DNA of 64,000 bases, from positions 12,772 through 76,771 of the forward strand of contig JAIPEE010000015.1 in NCBI GenBank assembly GCA_021737275.1, given 5' to 3'. Shown here in pieces: positions 2,314-59,612 of the stretch (positions are counted from its first letter, which is position 1; the number at the start of each line of letters is the position of its first letter). A program made the position numbers and the translations under genes. The notes beneath the pieces are model-generated. The model worked only from the letters and a program-made list of their open reading frames with translations, had not been told where the DNA came from and ran no database searches. This DNA is from Desulfobacterales bacterium. Its GTDB lineage: Bacteria > Desulfobacterota > Desulfobacteria > Desulfobacterales > JAIPEE01.

Positions 2314-3405
2314 TTACTTTGAAAAACTGATGATGTTTGTAGAAACATTTCCCTGCTTATAGCTTGTCTCATCCTTTTTTTTCTTGCTTTTTTCTTTATA
2401 TAACCGTTCATCTGCTTTTTTGATAAGCTTCGCAGGCGTATCCATATCAGGTTCAGATGTTGTGGAAATCCCGCAGCTGAAAGATACGGGGATCGTTTTT
2501 GATTTATTGCGAAGAGGGCTTTTATTAATATTATCGCGAAGCCTGTTTATAAGGTTGTCAGCATTTTTAAAATCAGTTTCAGGAAGAACTAGGACGAACT
2601 CATCACCTGCATATCGAGCAGCAATATCTGTTTCGCGGCAAACGTTAAGGAGATTTTTTGAAAAGTAGACAAGTAACTCATCACCAAAATCATGGCCATA
2701 ATTATCATTAACCGGTTTGAAATTATCAAGATCAATGAAGAGCAGGGAGATGATGTTTGAATAACGATTTGATCGAACTAATTCTCTTTTCAATGCAGAG
2801 TCCAGTGCCCTGCGGTTTAGAAGACCGGTAAGCGGATCCTGATATGCAAGGAGACGGAGTTTTTCATGTGCCGTTACATTTGAAATACACAACGAAACCT
2901 TCATGGCGAGGCGTTCAAGAAGCGATGTATCCATACCGGGTTTAAATCTGTTTTCATTCATATCGCCCTGGTTAAGGCTGCCAATCAGTTTTCCATCAAA
3001 ATAGATAGGAACCATCGCAATTGACTTGATAAAGTATTTTTTTTGATCTGGAAAGAGCTTATAATAATCCCTAAGATCTTCATTGACCAATAATGGTTCG
3101 GAATCAATACCAATAAGTTCCTGCAGTGAATCAATATCAATAATATTCATTTTTCCACTCACAACATCAGACATTTCAAGGTACTTTATCAGATTTGATG
3201 CTTCACTGTTTTCAATAAGTGAAATCCAGACATAAGGAACATTGAATGTGTCCTGAATAGATCCCAGAAGTGTTTCAAAAAGATCCCTATAGTTCAGAAT
3301 AGAAAGGAATTTTGCTTCAACATCATGAAATTTTCTGGTTATTTCCTCATTTTCCTTAAGTCGTTCAAGGATAATCTTGATGTCATGAATTGTATTAATC
3401 TTCAT
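2314..3405 (-). CDS. Diguanylate cyclase (GGDEF domain, AGDEF variant) with an N-terminal GAF-like sensor region
   Basis: C-terminal LTGLLNRRAL...FIDLDNFKPVNDNYGHDFGDELL...RYAGDEFVLVL, with RETD (an RxxD I-site) 5 residues before AGDEF. Confidence 0.85.
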   Translation of the reverse strand: MKINTIHDIKIILERLKENEEITRKFHDVEAKFLSILNYRDLFETLLGSIQDTFNVPYVWISLIENSEASNLIKYLEMSDVVSGKMNIIDIDSLQELIGIDSEPLLVNEDLRDYYKLFPDQKKYFIKSIAMVPIYFDGKLIGSLNQGDMNENRFKPGMDTSLLERLAMKVSLCISNVTAHEKLRLLAYQDPLTGLLNRRALDSALKRELVRSNRYSNIISLLFIDLDNFKPVNDNYGHDFGDELLVYFSKNLLNVCRETDIAARYAGDEFVLVLPETDFKNADNLINRLRDNINKSPLRNKSKTIPVSFSCGISTTSEPDMDTPAKLIKKADERLYKEKSKKKKDETSYKQGNVSTNIISFSK

Positions 3406-3651
3406 AATTTTTTTTAACCCTGAATTTGAACTGATTGTTTAAGAGGTAATAGTAAATGTTTAGTTTTCTTGCAATAAAAAAGTGACTTTCTTTAATTTCA
3501 TCATAAATAGAAATTTTACAATGCCCGATAGTTCTTTCTGTTTATATTAACTAATACTTGACAGATTTTGAAAATTTTGGTCTTATAAACACTTGAATTT
3601 TTTGAGGTTAATTGGGGCTTAACATCAGACCTATATTTTAATGAGGAGGAT

Positions 3652-4734
3652 ATGAAGATGAGAAGGATTTTACTGCTTGCAGCACTTATGTTGTGTGTTT
3701 GCGGAATTATAACCAGCTCTGCACTGGCTGGTGCACCATCACTTGATACATGGAAGGCCGATTTTGACCCTTCAGGCGCAAAGTATAAATGTATCGTTTC
3801 CAATGTTTCTCACCCGGTTATCAAGGGCGTTTATGCCGGTTTTGCAATTCGCGATGAACTGTGGAAACGTTCCAACGGTCAGATTTATATTGATTTCAAG
3901 CCTTTTTCCATGCTTGGTGGAGAAGTTGAAGTCCTCAATCAGCTCCAGATGGGTGCTATCCAAGGTATGGCTGTTAGTTCTGTTGCGGCAACAAATCTGG
4001 GTCCGCGTTTTGGTATGATCAATCTGCCATTTCTTGTAAATTCTTTTGATAAACTTGATAAATTTGTAGCCGGCGGCGAACTGTTTGACCACTTCATGAA
4101 TGCAATGGATCATCAGGGCATTATGGGCATGGATATTACCTGTTATGGTAATTATGGTTGGGCAACAACCACACCGGTTAGAACTATAGCCGATGCAAAA
4201 AAAGTAAAATTCCGTATTGCTGAAGCAGCTGTAAATAAACTCCTCTACACAGAATGGGGTTTCAACCCTGTCGTTATGCCCTGGCCGGATGTACCGGTTT
4301 CCCTGAAACAGGGTGTTATTACCGGTCTTGATCATACACCGACTGTTTGTAATATAACCAAAAAGTTTGAAGTTGCAAAATATTATACGCAGATTAACTA
4401 TGCTCAGGGGCTGTTTATCTGGATTTTCAACAAAGCCTGGTTTAACAGCCTTCCTGAAGATCTTCAGGTGATTTTCAAAGAAACGGTTAACGATGTTTGT
4501 GCTCAGATCCGTAAAGAGGGCAGACAGCAGGAAGCGGAACAGATTGCAAAAGCAAAAGAAAATGGAATTGAATTCTTTAATCTTTCCGATGCTGAAATGG
4601 CACAGTTGAGAAAACAGGGTGATGTTGCCCACCAGAAGTATGCTGAAGAGATTAATAAGCTTTATAAGGGTGATTCCTACCGGCCTGAAAACTTTCTTAA
4701 GGAAGTTCAGACGTATATGGCGTATCAGCCCTGA
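3652..4734 (+). CDS. TRAP transporter substrate-binding protein (DctP family)
   Basis: Signal peptide (MKMRRILLLAALMLCVCG...ALA) and DctP-like length and motifs. The small and large TRAP permeases follow directly. Confidence 0.85.
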   Translation: MKMRRILLLAALMLCVCGIITSSALAGAPSLDTWKADFDPSGAKYKCIVSNVSHPVIKGVYAGFAIRDELWKRSNGQIYIDFKPFSMLGGEVEVLNQLQMGAIQGMAVSSVAATNLGPRFGMINLPFLVNSFDKLDKFVAGGELFDHFMNAMDHQGIMGMDITCYGNYGWATTTPVRTIADAKKVKFRIAEAAVNKLLYTEWGFNPVVMPWPDVPVSLKQGVITGLDHTPTVCNITKKFEVAKYYTQINYAQGLFIWIFNKAWFNSLPEDLQVIFKETVNDVCAQIRKEGRQQEAEQIAKAKENGIEFFNLSDAEMAQLRKQGDVAHQKYAEEINKLYKGDSYRPENFLKEVQTYMAYQP

Positions 4735-11497: not shown

Positions 11498-14400
11498 TTA
11501 ACTTAAAGCCGAAACAATATATTCAGCCGTCTTTTCAGCGGACTTACCAAAAAGCATTTTCATGTCAACTAATTCAAGGAATTGATCCTCAAAAGTGATA
11601 CTGTTTTCCTGAACGATATTTTTAATTCTTTCATATTTGCCACCCAGAGCCTTAATTTTAACGGCAAGTTCAACTTCATCCCTGAATGCAATATTTAACA
11701 GGAGAAGATTTTCAATCCTGTTGGGCATAGCAGGGTCCGCGGAAATAATCGGTATGACGATGATGGTTCTGTTATCTTTTCGGCCGATGCCAATATAAAC
11801 ATTTCCTTCACGGACAATGATGCGCTTGGTGCCCTTGAGTCGGTTATCTTTTTCAACGCGTGATGGGATCTTTTCAAGTACACCTGATTTTTTGATGATT
11901 TCAATAGTTGATATGTCAGTAGGTTCACCCAGCAGATTGAGATTGTCAATCTTATAAAAAATAGAACCCTTGATATCAGATACAATGCCTTGAAGGTTTT
12001 TAAGTACGATAATATTATTATTGGAAAGCGTAGACGGTGATACTTCATGTTCTGTCAGTTTGTCAAAAAGAATACCTTCAAGCTTATCGCTGATACGACT
12101 GGTACCGACCGTAACCGTTTTAGCCTGGTGCTTTATTGCATCAACAGGTCGGGCCATTGAGTTAATCAGGTCTCCAAGGTTGTCAAAAAGAATAATCAGC
12201 AGATTTTTAGCGGTACCCTTAATGCCGAAATCAAGCTCAAAGTCAGATACGGACATCCTGCCCATGAGATATTTCATCACCAGTATCAGGTTGAGCGTTG
12301 CATCAATCCCCATGGTAGTCGGAAGCTCATTTGCCATTTTTTTCTTTCTGAACTCATAGTAAAAGGCAGCCACTTTTTCCCTGAATGACTTTTCAAGAAC
12401 AATCTCATATATATCAAGACCATTTTTTGCATGCTCATCAATGGATTTTTGAATTTCTTCGCGGGCATGGTGGAGAAACCTGGAGCCTTCATTGATAGAC
12501 AGGGCCGCATAATAACCCCACAAATGACCGGCCAACGTATTTAAAACCGGTGCCAGGTGTTCATCGACAAGCGGTACATTAAAGACAGCTTCAGCATAAG
12601 GCGTAAACCGGTCTTCACCTTCATTTGCAATAACAATGGGTGTTGCTTTATGCGCATGAAAAATCGCCGTATCTTTTATGATATCCCCGATAACTGAGCG
12701 CCTGGCACCTGCAGCGCAGACGATTATCAGCGGCTCCGAAGAGAGATCAATATGTTTTTTGTCTTCAACAAAATCAGTTGAAATGGTTTTATAGCAAAGC
12801 TCGCTGAGTTTAATACGGATTTCATCTGCAGAGGCTTTGTTGGGGCCACTTCCAACAACTGCCCAATACGTTTTTGAAACAGCTGATTTTTTAGCAGATG
12901 CTTCAATTTTATCCCTCATGGAGAGTACTTTCCTCATGTGTTCGGGCAATTCGAGAAGGCTTTTAATCTGTTCTGAAATAAAGTCGGCAGAGCGGCGATT
13001 TAGAATTTTTGATAGTTGGAGGCTGATTATTGCACCGGCAACGATCTGGGCATAAAAAGCTTTGGTTGATGCAACAGACATTTCAATATCTCTGCCGCTG
13101 CTGGTGTAGAATACACCATCCACTTTAAAGGTGATATCAGATTCCCTGCGGTTCACAATGGCCAAGGTTTGGCCGCCACGCTCCTTCACCATATCAATGG
13201 TCCGGTTGGTATCTGTTGTCGTGCCTGACTGACTGATTGCAATGACAAGAGCATCGGACATACTCTCGCTGTCATCTTTATCATTTAAAATAAAACCACT
13301 CAGTTCAGATGCTTTTAATGGTTTGACATACATTGACGGATTATGGAGGTAGTAATTCAGTATGTCAGCGCAAGCTTGGGCCGCAATACCGGCTGTTCCC
13401 TGACCTATAAAGAAAACTCTTTTGATTTTATTGTTTTTCAGGGAAACTTCTAATCTCTCAGGGAAAGTTGTTTTATCAAGAGAGATGATATGATGGCCGT
13501 ACTGTCTGTCAATTTTCCACCGATTCTGAAGTGTTTTTTCCACAGATTTCGGAGATTCAAGAATTTCCTTGAGAAAGAAATGAGGAAACTCCTGGCGGTC
13601 GATATCTCTTGAGGAGATTTCTGTGTAATTGATATCTTTTTCAGTAAGCTCAATAGGAGTACCGTCATAAGTCAAAGCCTTAATGCCGTTCAGTCCATTT
13701 CCTGATTCCTGATCCAGGATTAAAATCCGGCCATCGGAATTCCCGATCATTTTAATGTATGAAGGGGTCTCTTCAATAAAACCATAGACTTCGGATGTCG
13801 GCATGTAATGATCAGTTGCAAGGCCAATAAAAATTGCCTGACCGCTGCCCTTTTGAGCAAGAAATAACTTACCGGGCGCAAGGTCCGTATGCATCGATAT
13901 GGCGTGAGATCCTGTAAAATCACTTACTGCCAGGCGAAAAGCCTCTTCAATTTCAAAACCTTTTTCAAGATAATGTGTAACCCTGACAGGAATTATTTTG
14001 GTATCAGTTGTGATCTCTTCAGGGATTTTACTGCTACTTGTCTCATATATTTTTTTCAGCTCAAGGTAGTTATCAATATCACCGTTCAGGCAGGCATGAA
14101 TAATACCGGTCGTATTAACGGCAGTAGTATTATTATCTACAGGGTGACAATTAAATTCGTTTATGGAACCGACAGATGCCCAACGAGTATGAGACAATAT
14201 TGTATAGTTGAGATGTTCAAGACATGCCAGATCCTGCAGAATTATATCAGATATTATCTGTTCGCGAATAAAGCTGATGTTATCGCCAAGGTTGCCGATC
14301 TCTTTGGCAACTTTATAGGTCATGACAACAGCAATCTTTTTATTGTCTGACTTATTGACCCCGATGCTTTTATTCACAAGAATATTATCAGATGCGCGTT

Positions 14401-54682: not shown

Positions 54683-55756
54683 TTATAATATATGCCATTC
54701 CAAAATAGTGCAATACCATTTTCCCGATTTCTGGTATTTTTCTCTTTGAATCACAGTGACTATGCCAAGTTTGCTATTGTTGATTTCTGCAACAGCGTTA
54801 ATTCTGAATATATCGCTATTTGTTCGAATAACAGTTTCATTCAGTTTTATATCTGACAGCCCCGGTATATTGTTATACCAACCCGGTGCCGTAAGGCCAT
54901 TTATATAGGTGTCACTGTTTTTTTCATCACGGTATTCGGCCATGATCATGGCCAGGTTTTTATCACCCTGCGGAAGCAGAGCCGCCAGAACAGGAACTGC
55001 AGCTGTATTAATATTGATTTGTCCCGGGAAGCCGGGCGTATCGCCTGTGTCTAAAGAGGTGATGCCATGAACGGTAATAAATTCATATAATCCGGGCATA
55101 CCTTCGGTGCCGTAAAAAAATTCCGGTGTGATACCTTTGACCATCAATATATTATCGGGATGATCAAACGGCAGGTTGGTGCAGATATATGCCGGATCAA
55201 GTAAAACGTAATAATCTGATTCGGCACCGGTAAGACCGGTAATGGCTTCATCATCGCCCGTATCGATCCAGTCCTTTAAAGAATTAATAATTTCAGCCTG
55301 GGAGATATCTTTATAATGTTCGCTTACAGTAACGGCATTTTCAATAAAACGTTCCCAGACTTTCACCTGTTCCGGGTTAAAATCACGCCTGTCCGGATAT
55401 GTTACGATCGAATTAACCTGAATTCTGGAAAGTTCATCGGAAATCCGGACCGTAACTTTGCCATCATCAAACAAAAGTGTATCTGTAATGGCGGCAACTT
55501 TTTCAGGGATAGCCCAGTCCTCCTGAATCGTATCAATTTCCGATTCAGCCCTGTCTTTAATGAGGATTGCCATAGCCGCATGGATACCGGATGTTGCCAT
55601 GTTAAGCATTTTATAATGGTCCCTGGTGTTAGCCGTGGTCATAACAGTATGGCGAACACTTTTATTCAATGTCATTGCAACGGTAATCAAAATTGCAGCG
55701 ACCGATATGGTTATCAGCAGCGCAACGCCCCGATTATTAGTAATGGCCTTGTTCAT
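54683..55756 (-). CDS. gspK: Type II secretion minor pseudopilin GspK
   Basis: NRGVALLITISVAAILITVAM N-terminus, size, and the helix-hairpin-helix-like INTAAVPVLAAL motif typical of GspK. Confidence 0.8.
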   Translation of the reverse strand: MNKAITNNRGVALLITISVAAILITVAMTLNKSVRHTVMTTANTRDHYKMLNMATSGIHAAMAILIKDRAESEIDTIQEDWAIPEKVAAITDTLLFDDGKVTVRISDELSRIQVNSIVTYPDRRDFNPEQVKVWERFIENAVTVSEHYKDISQAEIINSLKDWIDTGDDEAITGLTGAESDYYVLLDPAYICTNLPFDHPDNILMVKGITPEFFYGTEGMPGLYEFITVHGITSLDTGDTPGFPGQININTAAVPVLAALLPQGDKNLAMIMAEYRDEKNSDTYINGLTAPGWYNNIPGLSDIKLNETVIRTNSDIFRINAVAEINNSKLGIVTVIQREKYQKSGKWYCTILEWHIL

Positions 55757-55759
55757 AAA

Positions 55760-56464
55760 TTACGATTTGTCCTGTTTGCCAAATAATGGCAGTGCAACCC
55801 GTGTTTCAAAAAAGTATGATGTCTCTTCTGTGCCGGTTTCAAGTGTAATCAATACAGACTTTGGCAGGGACTTTTCAAAGATGTTATCTCCCAAATCCCA
55901 GTAGTCATTCTCAATACCCTCTTTATCAAAATATTGTAGTGTCAGCGATTTTACATTTTTGCACAAAATTGGATCACTATCCGATTCTTCAAATTCAGGA
56001 TACGGAAAAATATTATCAGATCTTCTGATAACCATGTCACCGTTAGCCGTTTCATTAACATAATATACAATATGCGCTATGCCGGATTCCTTTCTGCCTC
56101 TGAAAGAGCAGTGTGCAAAAGAGAAAAATTGCAACCTGGAAAATGTTGATGAGTAAATATCATATGTTTCACCTAAAAAATTATAGCGGAGTGCCTCCGC
56201 ATCTTCCTTTGCAAAGTCATAAGGTGTCGCATAGATAGAGCTAAGATCAATCGTCATACGGGCCATGCAGTTCTGCGCCATTTCATATGCCTTATTTCCT
56301 TTTTCAATATCTTCAGCACTTGAAAATACAATTCCGTATGATCCGAATATGGTGGAGATGACGATGGCGAATATGGATATGGCGATCAGGATCTCAATGA
56401 GAGTGAAACCATTATTATAAAAATCTTGTCTCTCACCCGCTTCGTTCGAGCTCACAGAGGACAC
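55760..56464 (-). CDS. Minor pseudopilin GspJ-like
   Basis: Prepilin motif G|FTLIEILIAISIFAIV. No ATG lies between the repeat and the motif, and in-frame GTG codons occur at 56464 and 56455. The ORF-track start 56563 reads through repeat copy A. Confidence 0.65.
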   Translation of the reverse strand: MSSVSSNEAGERQDFYNNGFTLIEILIAISIFAIVISTIFGSYGIVFSSAEDIEKGNKAYEMAQNCMARMTIDLSSIYATPYDFAKEDAEALRYNFLGETYDIYSSTFSRLQFFSFAHCSFRGRKESGIAHIVYYVNETANGDMVIRRSDNIFPYPEFEESDSDPILCKNVKSLTLQYFDKEGIENDYWDLGDNIFEKSLPKSVLITLETGTEETSYFFETRVALPLFGKQDKS

Positions 56465-56497
56465 AGAGAAAAGCTTGAAAGCATTGCTTTGCAAAAG
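56425..56497 (-). repeat. T2SS-locus repeat element, copy A (about 73 nt)
   Basis: Hand alignment to copy C is gap-free, with about 60 of 71 positions identical (cYtgtctctcacccgcttcgYtcgag.tcacagag...cagagaaaagc...attgctt.gcaaa). Confidence 0.85.
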
Positions 56498-56580
56498 ATA
56501 CCAAAACCTGATTTTCAAGGTTTGAGGTATACATGATAAATGTTTTAAATAAATAAAATTCATTTTTGTTTATAAAATTC

Positions 56581-56620
56581 TTTTCTCTGAGCTCTCTGTG
56601 AACTCTTTGAGAGACAAGGG
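56581..56620 (+). repeat. T2SS-locus repeat element, copy B (short, inverted relative to A)
   Basis: The reverse complement cccttgtctctcaaagagttcacagagagctcagagaaaa shares 25 identical nt (gagttcacagagagctcagagaaaa) with copy C and lacks the cccgcttcgctc segment. Confidence 0.8.
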
Positions 56621-56721
56621 TTTAATTTATTATTCTTGTAATATACATGTAAGGGTGATTCAGGTTGTACATCTACCCCCATACCTTGTTTTTCTCTTTT
56701 ATCTCTCTTGTGCTCTCTTTT

Positions 56722-57132
56722 TTACCTGAAATACCGATACCCCACCACCTCGTAAACCATCCCGCCTTCATTCCGATTAACCACAACACTTATTTTCTTA
56801 AGCCCATTAACCGTATCACCCAACTCCTCATTTTCAAAATCTTCAACCGCTACCTGCCAGAAATAATCCGGATAATTTTCCCCAAAATTTCCACTGTCGT
56901 CTGTAAGATCATTCAACTGACGTGTTTCAATTTCAACCATTTTGCCTTGTGCTAAAAGCGGTGCAACCGTATAAAATCGGGCATTCATGTTCATGGATAT
57001 AGTTTGTGCATGAAGCTGGTATACTGCCGTCAGTACTATCGCAATAACAGTAATGGCTATCATGACTTCAAAAAGTGTGAAGCCCTGTGGACTTTTAAGT
57101 ACCCGGCTATTTTTAACGCTATTATCCATCAA
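56722..57132 (-). CDS. gspI: Minor pseudopilin GspI
   Basis: Prepilin motif QG|FTLFEVMIAITVIAIVL. Size (136 aa) and position between the gspH-like and gspJ-like genes. Confidence 0.78.
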   Translation of the reverse strand: MMDNSVKNSRVLKSPQGFTLFEVMIAITVIAIVLTAVYQLHAQTISMNMNARFYTVAPLLAQGKMVEIETRQLNDLTDDSGNFGENYPDYFWQVAVEDFENEELGDTVNGLKKISVVVNRNEGGMVYEVVGYRYFR

Positions 57133-57676
57133 TATTAATATGACCGTCTTCTATCTGAACATTAGCGAGAAAGGGTTCAATAATTACTGAAAGTTGTCTG
57201 CCATCACCTTCAATATGTATAACGGTTTTGTCCGAATAACCTTTATTATAAAAATAAATGCTTGTTACACCGCCAGAAAAAATTTCATCATCCGGAAAAG
57301 AGATATTTGAAATTATAACTCCTCCAGGAAACCGGTATGCTTTTTCTTCAGCTTCAGCCAACTATTCGTCAGGCATGTTTTCAGCTGTTATCCAGAGTTG
57401 ATTGACATCCATATTAATATTGAGCAGGTAGTTTGTTCTGGTGGTTTTAGCTTTTTCTTTCAATGCAGGAACATTAGATATAAACCACCGTGTTGATGCA
57501 TTTATATCATTATCAAAAAAGGTGGTGTTAAATTTGGGAACAGTAAAAGTGATCATAATGCCGAGAAGTGCAATGACAATAATCAGCTCTATGAGGGTAA
57601 ATCCTTTGGTAGATCTTAGCCGTGAAGTTTTCACGAAAGGTTGATTGTTCTCCTTAATAAAAACCCTGTCTCTCAC
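57122..57676 (-). pseudogene. GspH-like minor pseudopilin interrupted by a single in-frame TAG (57362-57364)
   Basis: GTG start at 57676 and prepilin motif KG|FTLIELIIVIALLG. The 104-codon and 79-codon ORFs are in the same frame (...gac gaa TAG ttg gct gaa...). Together they have GspH length and the C-terminal beta domain (YRFPGGVII...IYFYNKGY...IEGDGRQLSVII). Confidence 0.65.
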
Positions 57677-57736
57677 CCGCTTCGCTCGAGTTCACAGAGA
57701 GCTCAGAGAAAAGCGTAAAATTATTGCTTCGCAAAT
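57665..57736 (-). repeat. T2SS-locus repeat element, copy C (about 72 nt)
   Basis: See copy A. The gspH-like GTG start (57674-57676) lies inside the element. Confidence 0.85.
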
Positions 57737-57799
57737 CCCATACTGTTTTTTATATAAACGTTTGGATTCAGTGAAAGACATGTTTTATGATTTTCTCTT

Positions 57800-58258
57800 T
57801 TATTCAATATCCCAATTATTAATATCCGCATCAAACTCCTCGCCACCCGGCACACCATCAGCCCCATAGGAGATAATATCAAAATCACCATTTACACCAG
57901 GTGAAAGATATATATATTCACCATTCCACGGATCGCCTGGAACCTTTCTTTTTTCAAGGTATCCGCCTCTTTGCCATTTCTTTGGGATCTTCCCTGTCTG
58001 GGGCATTTCAACAAGAGCCTGCAACCCCTGTTCAGTTGATGGGTAGAAACCATTATGGAGCTTAAACAGATGAAGTGCAGTTTCCAATCCCTGGATCTGA
58101 GCGTGTGCTTTGGTTACCTTGGCCTCATCCGGTTTATCCATGAATCGAGGCACAACAATAGTTGCCAGTATACCGATAATGATAATAACAACCATGATTT
58201 CAATTAGTGTGAAGCCCTGTGTGCTGCGAATAAAACCTGTGACTCTTTTATCTTTCAT
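57800..58258 (-). CDS. gspG: Type II secretion major pseudopilin GspG
   Basis: MKDKRVTGFIRSTQG|FTLIEIMVVIIIIGILA, with DPWGNEY-like (DPWNGEYIY) and GADGVPGGEEFDADI motifs. GGAG lies 7 nt upstream of the 58258 ATG. Confidence 0.9.
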   Translation of the reverse strand: MKDKRVTGFIRSTQGFTLIEIMVVIIIIGILATIVVPRFMDKPDEAKVTKAHAQIQGLETALHLFKLHNGFYPSTEQGLQALVEMPQTGKIPKKWQRGGYLEKRKVPGDPWNGEYIYLSPGVNGDFDIISYGADGVPGGEEFDADINNWDIE

Positions 58259-58423
58259 TATTTCTCCAGACACCTGCAATCTATTACTTGGATTCAAGTT
58301 ATGTTTTTCGCACCTCATTCCTGAAATAAGCAGGAACCCGGCACACTTTAATTTTGTTTATCGGAGATTGGTATGGACGCTACCATAACTTCTCTTATAA
58401 TGCAAATTAAGTATGAACATAAT

Positions 58424-58474
58424 TTTGTGAAGCAACAAGTATTTCAAGCCCTACTCTGTGCCTTCTGTGAGAGA
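58424..58474 (+). repeat. T2SS-locus repeat element, copy D (diverged, same orientation as B)
   Basis: ttttgtgaagcaacaagtatttcaagccctactctgtgccttctgtgagag parallels the reverse complement of copy A (ttttgcaaagcaatgctttcaagcttttctctgtgtcctctgtgag). Confidence 0.6.
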
Positions 58475-58614
58475 TTGCTGTTTCCGATTTTTTTTCTCAG
58501 AAGGCCTACACTACTTTAGTATGATTTTTTCGTATTTAATAAAAAAATGTTGACCCCACAGAATTAAAAAGGTAAGGGTTATAAAATTTTATTTTTTTAT
58601 TTACTGTTATTAAA

Positions 58615-58691
58615 CCAAGTAGTTCCCAAGTAGTTCCCAAGTAGTTCCCAAGTAGTTCCCAAGTAGTTCCCAAGTAGTGCCCAAGTAGTAG
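58615..58691. repeat. Tandem repeat, 11-nt unit ccaagtagttc x7 (last two units degenerate)
   Basis: Five perfect units (58615-58669), then ccaagtagtgc and ccaagtagtag. Confidence 0.95.
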
Positions 58692-58776
58692 TACATAGTT
58701 TCACATAAATTATTATAATAAATGAGGTCTTTGGTGTTTCCAAGGTCTTCGTAAGTATTAATTAATCATATTAAAC

Positions 58777-59347
58777 CACCAGCTATGCTGGTGCGAACCT
58801 GATAGGCTCTGCCGGTCAGGCGTGATATACCTCCTTCCCGAGAGCCCCGGAAGGCAAAAGAGAAGGAGGTAATATGAGAAATTACAAGAGTTTATCCCAT
58901 GTAAGATGGGAATGCAAATATCATGTTGTATGGGTTCAAAATACAGAAGGAAAAAGCTATACGGCAAATTAAGAAGAGGGTTTGGAACAATAATAAGGGA
59001 TTTATGTAAACAAAAAGGCATAGAGAAATTATAGAAGGTCATGCGATGTATGACCATGTTCATATGTGTTTGAGCATACCTTCCAAGTATAGCATTTCAC
59101 ATGCAATCGGTTTTTTGAAAGGGAAAAGCGCCATAATGATACACCGGGGGCATTTTAGGAATATGAAAGATGGTAAATCCTTTTGGGCGAGAGGTTATTT
59201 TGTAAGTACAGTTGGTCTGGATGAAAAAACAATCAGAACCTATATCAAGAAACAAGAGCAGTCTGAACAGCGTCAGTTGGAGTTTGAAACCGAGATAAAC
59301 TAAAGCCCCTTTCAGAGGCTCTCCTCAAGCTACCAGCTATGCTGGTA
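58777..59347 (+). mobile_element. IS200-type (IS200/IS605 family) insertion sequence, decayed
   Basis: Sub-terminal hairpins caccagc-tat-gctggtg (58777-58793) and taccagc-tat-gctggta (59331-59347) flank a Y1 transposase gene. An RBS-sequestering stem cctccttc (58830-58837) / gaaggagg (58862-58869) is present. Confidence 0.8.
58874..59303 (+). pseudogene. tnpA: IS200 Y1 transposase TnpA with two -1 frameshifts
   Basis: Frame A gives MRNYKSLSHVRWECKYHVVWV. Frame B from about 58939 gives KYRRKKLYGKLRRGFGTIIRDLCKQKGIE. Frame C from about 59020 gives EIIEGHAMYDHVHMCLSIPSKYSIS...GYFVSTVG. Each segment is shifted by one nt. Confidence 0.8.
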
Positions 59348-59612
59348 GTCTGTGACTTATTGATATCAGACAGCTGAGAATATTGTTGACAATGATTTAT
59401 TTTTGCAATAAAAAAATTAGTTTTTAAGAGCCATTTCCAAAAAATAATAATTCAGTAATATTGAAGTAAACATTATAGTGGGTTGTTAAGCTGTTTTCTG
59501 CTTTATATACGCAGAGCGGCAGAAACACATTTGGATTTCCATGCGCATATTCGAATAGATATATTCATATAATATACATGAAGCATATGGAAATTTTAGA
59601 AAGGAAGTTATT

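Follow-up and report, generated by a model that had tools for sequence, protein, structure and literature searches.

The 64,000-nt window considered here, i.e. the whole stretch analysed (positions 12,772 to 76,771 of contig JAIPEE010000015.1, assembly GCA_021737275.1, Desulfobacterales bacterium), belongs to contig C46 of a 4.26-Mb draft genome of 41% G+C and carries, on its minus strand, a type II secretion (gsp) operon whose pseudopilin genes are interspersed with four copies, A to D, of a short repeat element. The closest relatives of the GspE sequence were found in metagenome-assembled genomes (MAGs) of Desulfobacterales and in Desulfosarcina, at 65-72% identity. An earlier note on this DNA had identified the genes as pseudopilins, which is backed by Pfam matches to T2SSG, T2SSJ, T2SSK and T2SSL/M and by N_methyl motifs. 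In particular, the region comprises a gspG-like major pseudopilin gene (57800-58258, minus; T2SSG, E 3e-40) with a probable start at ATG 58258 after GGAG, a gspH-like gene (57122-57634, minus) delimited from its open reading frame (ORF), Pfam matches and frames, with a probable start at GTG 57634, a gspI-like minor pseudopilin gene (56722-57132, minus; ORF with N_methyl), a gspJ-like ORF of 267 aa as it stands (55760-56563, minus; N_methyl at residues 50-72, T2SSJ at E 2e-4, below the Pfam cut-off) and gspK (54683-55756, minus; Pfam), followed by gspL/M-like genes.

All four copies, previously described as a repeat of about 70 nt within 2.1 kb, proved to be real and lie approximately where they had been placed. 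Copies A (56417-56495, minus) and C (57657-57735, minus, in the gspG-gspH spacer) align without gaps over 79 nt with 67/79 identical bases (85%); the first estimate had been about 60 in 71. Copy A, the long arm of a composite described below, contains an exact match to the core of the element and was recognised by nhmmer at E 2e-17 with the profile of the source genome itself and at E 2.5e-13 with a profile derived from other genomes only; the respective values for C, a solo unit, are E 1e-17 and E 1.4e-13. Copy B (56579-56628, plus; nhmmer E 4e-6) is the short arm, in which the 26-nt stretch 56580-56605 is complementary to C at all 26 positions (100%) and to A at 85%, the tail at 56608-56627 matching as well. 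Copy D (approximately 58423-58474, plus), which lies upstream of gspG in antisense orientation relative to the gsp genes, is diverged and follows the pattern TTTGTGAAGCAA...TTTCAAGC...CTCTGTGCCTTCTGTGAGAGA; it was recovered by local alignment, nhmmer giving only E 0.16, and its alignment with A scored 35, whereas 2000 shuffles reached at most 25 and about 3000 random segments of the window at most 28. As had been noticed, both B and D are inverted and partial; they are coreless, and both are statistically significant. A degenerate 26-mer matched A, B and C alone in the window, with 0 matches expected from shuffles, and a genome-wide nhmmer search found no copy beyond A-D in the 64 kb or on the contig of the window.

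In the sense direction, the basic unit of about 80 nt consists of the mini-hairpin TTGCRAAGCAA, a stretch of some 15 nt with TTTTCT at its end, two CTCTGYG units 9 nt apart, a 21-nt core (CTCGAGCGAAGCGGGYGAGAG, written CTCGARCGAAGCGGGTGAGAG in the unit anatomy) that itself contains a GCGAAGC mini-hairpin motif, and an A/T-rich tail (GGTTTTTAT-like). Copy A shows, in gene-sense order, the mini-hairpin TTGCAAAGCAA (56484-56494), two CTCTGTGnn units, the core CTCGAACGAAGCGGGTGAGAG (56430-56450) and the A/T tail, and copy C has the mini-hairpin TTGCGAAGCAA at 57724-57734 and the core CTCGAGCGAAGCGGGTGAGAG at 57670-57690. The CTCTGAG/CTCTGTG units and the GAGAGACAAGG tail are present in B and the CGAGCGAAGCGGG insert is absent; in both B and D the CGARCGAAGCGGG insert is missing, with CTCTGTG joining AGAGA directly. 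An inverted doublet of such units forms a long imperfect palindrome, in which the short arm is paired to the long one and the CGARCGAAGCGGG insert is left out as a bulge of 12 nt. For the minus-strand transcript across A and B (56405-56640), a fold of -71.1 kcal/mol (z = -7.6) is predicted. The single units A and C show no gain in folding over shuffles (z +1.45 and +0.77, respectively). Neither the unit of about 80 nt nor the 212-bp doublet holds a conserved ORF. A consensus scan detected no terminator-like site inside A, B, C or D and no promoter-like site in A or C, and the reading of the copies as terminators or promoters was rejected on these grounds.

Copies A and B together with their AT-rich spacer constitute a composite element of 212 bp (56417-56628), with inverted termini (ATAAAAATCTTGTCTCTCA... 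and ...TGAGAGACAAGGGTTTAATTT) that pair in the predicted fold. It is bordered by the direct repeat ATTATT on the left (56411-56416) and on the right (56629-56634), a putative target-site duplication, the plus strand reading ...GTGAAACC ATTATT (ATAAAAATCTTGTCTCTCA ... TGAGAGACAAGGGTTTAATTT) ATTATT CTTGTAAT..., with the element in parentheses. The fraction of window positions with identical flanking 6-mers at such spacing is 0.0004, or 0.0012 where both junctions are AT-rich. The mature part of GspJ begins at G|FTLIE (approximately 56410), and all in-frame start codons upstream of it (ATG 56563, one TTG and two GTG) fall within the element, which bears out the reported overlap of A with the gspJ coding start; none of them is preceded by a recognisable Shine-Dalgarno sequence, and the gspJ frame runs through 51 codons of AT-rich element DNA without a stop. 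Upstream of B, a short ORF beginning ATG GGG GTA ... (MGVDVQPESPLHVYYKNN-KLNPCLS...*) enters the element and terminates there; its first part (56635-56688, minus, frame 0; ATG GGG GTA GAT ..., MGVDVQPESPLHVYYK) is the remnant of a putative pre-insertion gspJ start. When the two flanks are joined with one ATTATT, a stop-free frame is obtained, MGVDVQPESPLHVYYKNNGFTLIEILIAIS..., which reads MGVDVQPESPLHVYYKNNG|FTLIE..., i.e. MGVDVQPESPLHVYYKNNG|FTLIEILIAISIF..., and corresponds to a prepilin-type precursor that is complete, with AAGG ahead of its start codon. Since an uninterrupted GspJ precursor is regained in this way, the simplest reading of the sequence is that the A+B doublet was inserted into the leader (signal-peptide) coding region of gspJ. 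In such an event, one doublet would have entered the leader-coding part and duplicated ATTATT, cutting the original start codon off mature GspJ, so that translation would then start solely from codons inside the element; the 218 bp involved are not a multiple of three, and the old gspJ start is therefore out of frame. The allele without 56417-56634 would be expected to show, on the plus strand, the empty-site junction ...GTGAAACCATTATTCTTGTAATATAC.... GspJ could still be translated from a new start inside the element, and the predicted -71 kcal/mol hairpin in the operon transcript may lower or alter its synthesis.

The relation of copy C to gspH appears to be different. The ORF finder places the gspH start at GTG 57676, inside C, and the earlier note had taken this GTG as part of the conserved end of the element, read in gspJ in another frame; the frames do differ. 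GTG 57634 is nevertheless the likelier start, because the leader that it gives, MKTSRLRSTKG|FTLIE, is short and basic as is typical, and because a Shine-Dalgarno sequence, AAGGAG at 57655-57650, precedes it directly after the last base of C. Copy C would thus probably lie wholly upstream of gspH, in the gspG-gspH spacer, and the start inside C would be an ORF-finder artefact. The gspH-like gene is also interrupted by one in-frame TAG (57362-57364, minus; ...NMPDE*LAEAEEK...), which separates 104 and 79 codons of the same frame and could reflect a pseudogene, a sequencing error or a recoded stop.

Genome-wide BLASTN and iterated nhmmer searches returned 16 matches at E<0.01 and 23 at E<1, distributed over at least 10 contigs of the source genome. 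The copies lie beside unrelated genes and show no association with gsp: their neighbours include mutL/gatA, an AmpG-like permease and the GTP-dependent PEP carboxykinase gene pckG, flgK/flgL, adenine deaminase/amidohydrolase, uracil-DNA glycosylase (udg)/coaBC, trpE/cinA and an ABC-type binding protein. The element is therefore private to the pseudopilin region, as had been proposed, within the 64-kb window but not in the genome. The hundreds of scattered copies that had been envisaged for a generic repeat were not observed either, only about 20 being present. On contig C35 (61884-68188), a Kelch-repeat and lipase-like gene pair is tandemly duplicated with one copy of the element in the spacer of each pair, and these two copies are not independent insertions because they form part of a tandem gene duplication. 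Two further inverted doublets were identified, at C44:69579-69815 and C77:41777-42007, and in all three doublets of the genome the unit tails point outward. Four copies per 2.1 kb, against about 20 per 4.26 Mb, is a density with a chance probability of about 1e-6 after scanning; this clustering at the gsp locus most likely reflects local spread or copying, since B is identical to C at 26 of 26 positions, and it does not indicate a role in pseudopilin control.

Homologues of GspK were detected in 108 of 121 genomes of the order, with a best identity of 49%, and the element was absent from all 20 orthologous gspG-K loci searched with the family profile and a loose core pattern. Intergenic distances between pseudopilin genes in the orthologous loci range from 11 to 430 nt, with one further spacer of 1411 nt. 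Compact operons encode short leaders such as MSASNKG|FTLFE, and long spacers hold other content, including long hairpins after gspG in several genomes. In one relative, G009 (locus L150), the gspH-I and gspI-J spacers (2900-3200 and 3535-3750) consist of heptamer arrays (CATCGAG, CCAGAAG and similar) that extend in frame into the leader peptides of the pseudopilins. Because long spacers carry hairpins and heptamer arrays, gsp junctions seem to tolerate foreign repeats in general. To judge from these 20 loci, the element is no part of the conserved design of the gsp operon.

An exact scan for the 21-nt core, with one genome per species, yielded at least 118 loci, in Syntrophorhabdus/Syntrophorhabdaceae, Desulfosarcina, Desulfobacterales and many "delta proteobacterium" and Thermodesulfobacteriota MAGs. 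The statements that follow on these loci refer to the matches listed, among which single Opitutales, Limisphaerales (Verrucomicrobiota) and Fermentibacteria MAGs were also present, and a few matches in G+C-rich coding DNA look like chance; a crude count of copy orientation at these loci was blurred by spurious ORFs in such G+C-rich sequence. The copies share a heptad-plus-hairpin architecture, with a CTCTGYG-like unit directly before the core in 87% of cases and, farther 5', a genome-specific hairpin, often with a CYTCTCA loop, and then a T-rich run; the 65 nt upstream of the CTCTGYG-like unit fold at -19.8 kcal/mol versus -13.2 for shuffles, and the 65 nt downstream fold like shuffles. A profile built solely from foreign loci recognises C and A at the E values given above, and the window copies consequently belong to the same family as the foreign ones. 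The family is patchily distributed: of 301 evenly sampled genomes of the host phylum, five contain the exact core, i.e. the source genome and four members of one other family, and weak partial BLAST matches were obtained in about one third of 30 relatives of the same order.

The module is embedded in elements of different construction. Syntrophorhabdus harbours doublets of about 330 bp that carry a core at either end and enclose two different hairpins. In soil "delta proteobacterium" MAGs (L028, L048, L066, L076 and related loci), a 325-bp element is bounded by outer inverted repeats TTAACGGTCTC... and contains the module internally; a comparison of filled and empty sites between related soil MAGs was hampered by a flank that is itself repetitive and by the distance between the genomes. 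The outer repeats of this 325-bp element, TTAACGGTCTCAAAATAATA.../...TTATGAGACTGTTAA, are possibly accompanied by a TA duplication, and its 3' end usually lies 70-280 nt upstream of a gene of the same orientation. The chromosome of a Desulfosarcina MAG (L255-L259) carries 25 of its 26 copies in two same-strand arrays of 13 and 12 copies (7,242,527-7,261,121 and 7,316,111-7,325,724), in which the copies separate toxin-antitoxin (PIN/VapBC-like, GNAT/RHH-like) and nucleotidyltransferase/HEPN gene pairs. An exosortase/polysaccharide gene island, which contains insertion sequence (IS) elements, is flanked by the arrays. A further arrangement, a 254-bp unit in three tandem copies, each composed of the module and then a small Cys-rich ORF (MNVNSNHGFHCGQRNHETTSRCPPGS), was observed in L063 (5100-5760, minus). 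Rfam gave chance-level matches only in 55500-59500 and, at 16 loci from other genomes, no match to the element, and a literature search for the core sequence found no paper containing it; the family thus seems to be undescribed.

With respect to known systems, the element displays several traits of a MITE (a transposable element of the miniature inverted-repeat type): it is non-coding and shorter than 500 bp, has terminal inverted repeats, and occurs as dispersed copies on at least 10 contigs. Like the Correia/NEMIS elements of Neisseria, which are bacterial MITEs, the present element is small, non-coding, intergenic and often co-transcribed, with terminal inverted repeats that form a long hairpin and, at A+B, a putative short target duplication, and by analogy it could alter the expression of an adjacent gene. 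It differs from them in that no parent IS with matching ends was found, in its copy number of about 20 and in a conserved internal module placed in differing shells. A second parallel is offered by REPINs, doublets of repetitive extragenic palindromic (REP) sequences mobilised by REP-associated tyrosine transposases, RAYTs (Bertels and Rainey, 2011; Nunvar et al., 2010, PMC2817692). Here too, a short unit occurs singly or as an inverted doublet with a variable spacer, the doublet was apparently moved, and many Y1 domains are encoded in the genome. In contrast to REP/REPIN sequences, the element has no GTAG-type head, numbers about 20 copies rather than hundreds, is not associated with the flanks of Y1 genes and is accompanied at A+B by a putative 6-bp duplication, which movement of the IS200/RAYT type is not expected to leave. 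The occurrence of GCGAAGC in published REP tables was judged coincidental.

The published description found to come nearest is that of the Geobacter metallireducens Gmet_I class 2 'paired sites'. Each of these is made up of three TCTCCGTS[Y] repeats in tandem, and the two sites of a pair lie on opposite strands at a variable distance; they are multicopy, intergenic and without known function (Aklujkar et al., 2009, PMC2700814). TCTCCGTS[Y] is close to CTCTGYGnn, and both families form inverted pairs, although the arms of the element hold two CTCTGYGnn units instead of three repeats and the Gmet_I sites, compared by description only, are described without the 21-nt core. Palindromic repeats inserted in coding genes are also known from Rickettsia, where the Rickettsia-specific palindromic elements lie in mature coding regions and can be read through in frame; the probable insertion in gspJ, in contrast, affects a cleaved leader peptide and displaces the start codon. 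Finally, an imperfect hairpin with asymmetric unpaired bases and, in Desulfosarcina, same-strand arrays between toxin-antitoxin cassettes are reminiscent of integron attC sites, but RYYYAAC/GTTRRRY boxes are absent from the unit, and in the source genome the copies are dispersed among housekeeping genes and not beside intI. Three integron-integrase genes of this genome score above the NCBIfam TIGR02249 cut-off (C63:203814-204734, C1:6147-7094 and C32:77992-78930), and neither copies nor arrays of the element adjoin them, the contigs ending there. In particular, C63 ends exactly at its intI gene and C1 is only 7.7 kb long, so that any cassette arrays are probably missing from the assembly. A rule-based search detected no canonical attC sites in the Desulfosarcina arrays, and identity with attC was rejected, being kept as a low-probability case only.

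The source genome contains 12 Y1_Tnp (IS200-like) loci. Its intact Y1 genes of 320-350 aa are flanked by their own inverted repeats (GGGGTCAAG.../GGGGACGTCC...) and not by the element, and mobilisation in the manner of RAYT and REP was rejected accordingly. Six genes with an N-terminal Y1 domain (C44:72185-73159, C35:68237-69202, C35:251-1288, C32:84304-85323, C12:1260-2279 and C15:42840-43883) are each bracketed by their own short inverted repeats (GGGGTCAAGTCT.../GGGGACGTCCGTGA...), and at the C35:68237 and C32 loci the 3' end of the gene and the repeat are tandemly duplicated. One of the 12 loci, a decayed IS200-type Y1 transposase, falls within the window at 58968-59255 (plus); it matches Y1_Tnp positions 24-121, has a single in-frame TAA and is separated from D by about 500 nt; no link between this remnant and the element was found. 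Between D and the remnant, upstream of gspG, there are some seven to eight tandem copies of the 11-nt sequence CCAAGTAGTTC (58604-58702).

Taken together, these data are best accounted for if the copies at the gsp locus are members of a dispersed, non-coding and probably mobile MITE/REPIN-like repeat family, of which one doublet was inserted in gspJ, a reading to which we assign a probability of roughly 0.7. It agrees with one of the two options of the earlier note, a MITE-like repeat that has colonised the operon, which is supported by the dispersal of the copies, the inverted termini with the 6-bp repeat, the restoration of the gspJ frame and the 20 operons without the element, and further backed by the multicopy occurrence of the same module in distant genomes. 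We infer from these features of the sequence that the element moved by transposition. Besides the doublet in gspJ, C would represent a solo unit between gspG and gspH, and D a decayed unit upstream of gspG.

Several observations weigh against this reading. Neither an autonomous element nor a transposase with the same termini was found, and no inverted pair of cores encloses a transposase, in a limited search that does not prove absence; nor does any protein family recur beside the foreign copies listed. An exact-protein look-up and a metagenome scan revealed no close relative that could show an empty site. The flanking direct repeat is clear for A+B alone, the C44 and C77 doublets having ambiguous flanks, as do the copies in other genomes with respect to target-site duplication. 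None of the copies in the source genome is recent, because they are 75-85% alike. For a repeat that is selfish and nothing more, it is unusual that the core should be conserved across phyla in elements of differing construction. Finally, solo copies between co-directional genes are sense-oriented in all six independent cases (two-sided p about 0.03, the two C35 copies being counted once). The orientation of the element does not track local GC skew, and a replication-linked orientation was rejected on this account; the orientation of solo copies looks tied to transcription rather than replication, although the sample is small, which hints at a constraint at the transcript level.

These last points are among the grounds for considering that the element is a host-domesticated intergenic module, i.e. 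a transcribed spacer acting on mRNA stability, processing, termination or insulation, as has been proposed for REP sequences and their bacterial interspersed mosaic elements (BIME), enterobacterial repetitive intergenic consensus (ERIC) sequences and Correia elements, in which case the gsp copies would tune the ratios of GspG, GspH/I and GspJ/K. The uniform sense orientation of the six solo copies, uncorrelated with GC skew, would fit such a function, as would the genome-specific hairpin and T-rich run that precede the module elsewhere, the position of C exactly where relatives often have a post-gspG hairpin, the very stable A+B hairpin in the operon transcript and the conservation of the core across phyla. 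However, single A and C fold like shuffles and contain no terminator- or promoter-like site, the distribution is patchy (5/301 genomes) and excludes the 20 orthologous operons, and six out of six is a small sample, so that we regard domestication as unlikely.

Still less probable is that the module is recognised by a site-specific or single-strand recombination system by which gene cassettes are assembled in an attC-like manner, the dispersed copies being stray or decayed sites. The two one-strand Desulfosarcina arrays between toxin-antitoxin and nucleotidyltransferase/HEPN pairs, the long imperfect hairpin of the doublet with its conserved asymmetric bulge and the three integron-integrase genes of the source genome point in this direction. 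Nevertheless, the RYYYAAC/GTTRRRY boxes and canonical attC sites are lacking in the arrays, which moreover lie megabases from the intI genes of that genome and contain ORFs facing both ways, and the source-genome copies are located between housekeeping genes, none of them beside intI. It is likewise improbable that the CTCTGYG units and the bulged CTCGAGCGAAGCGGGCGAGAG hairpin form the cis site of an undescribed Desulfobacterota system for recombination or single-strand DNA mobilisation. If this were true, the system would build same-strand arrays of toxin-antitoxin or defence-like mini-cassettes, as attC does but with a different site and enzyme, and the gsp copies would be stray sites.

The other option of the earlier note, in which the element would act in cis to regulate the pseudopilin locus specifically (as promoter/operator or through translational control), is very improbable: four copies within 2.1 kb at the gene junctions of one operon and the provision by A of the sole available gspJ start codons would favour it, but it is contradicted by genome-wide dispersal, with the unit beside at least 10 unrelated loci and in none of the 20 orthologous operons, the lack of a fold in single units and of promoter or terminator sites agrees poorly with it, and the overlap with gspJ is explained by insertion and target duplication, that with gspH being probably an ORF-finder artefact.

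If the copies are members of a mobile repeat family, any effect of the element on pseudopilin expression may be a side effect of insertion, and the apparent "pseudopilin control element" would be selfish or generic repeat DNA. With a gspJ that has lost its original start and a gspH with an in-frame stop, the type II secretion operon of this bacterium may be partly impaired, and annotators should not take the 267-aa gspJ ORF and the gspH start at GTG 57676 at face value. On a broader scale, the 21-nt core shared across orders and phyla, together with the cassette-like arrays of Desulfosarcina, would offer a handle for finding the protein that recognises this repeat in sulfate reducers.

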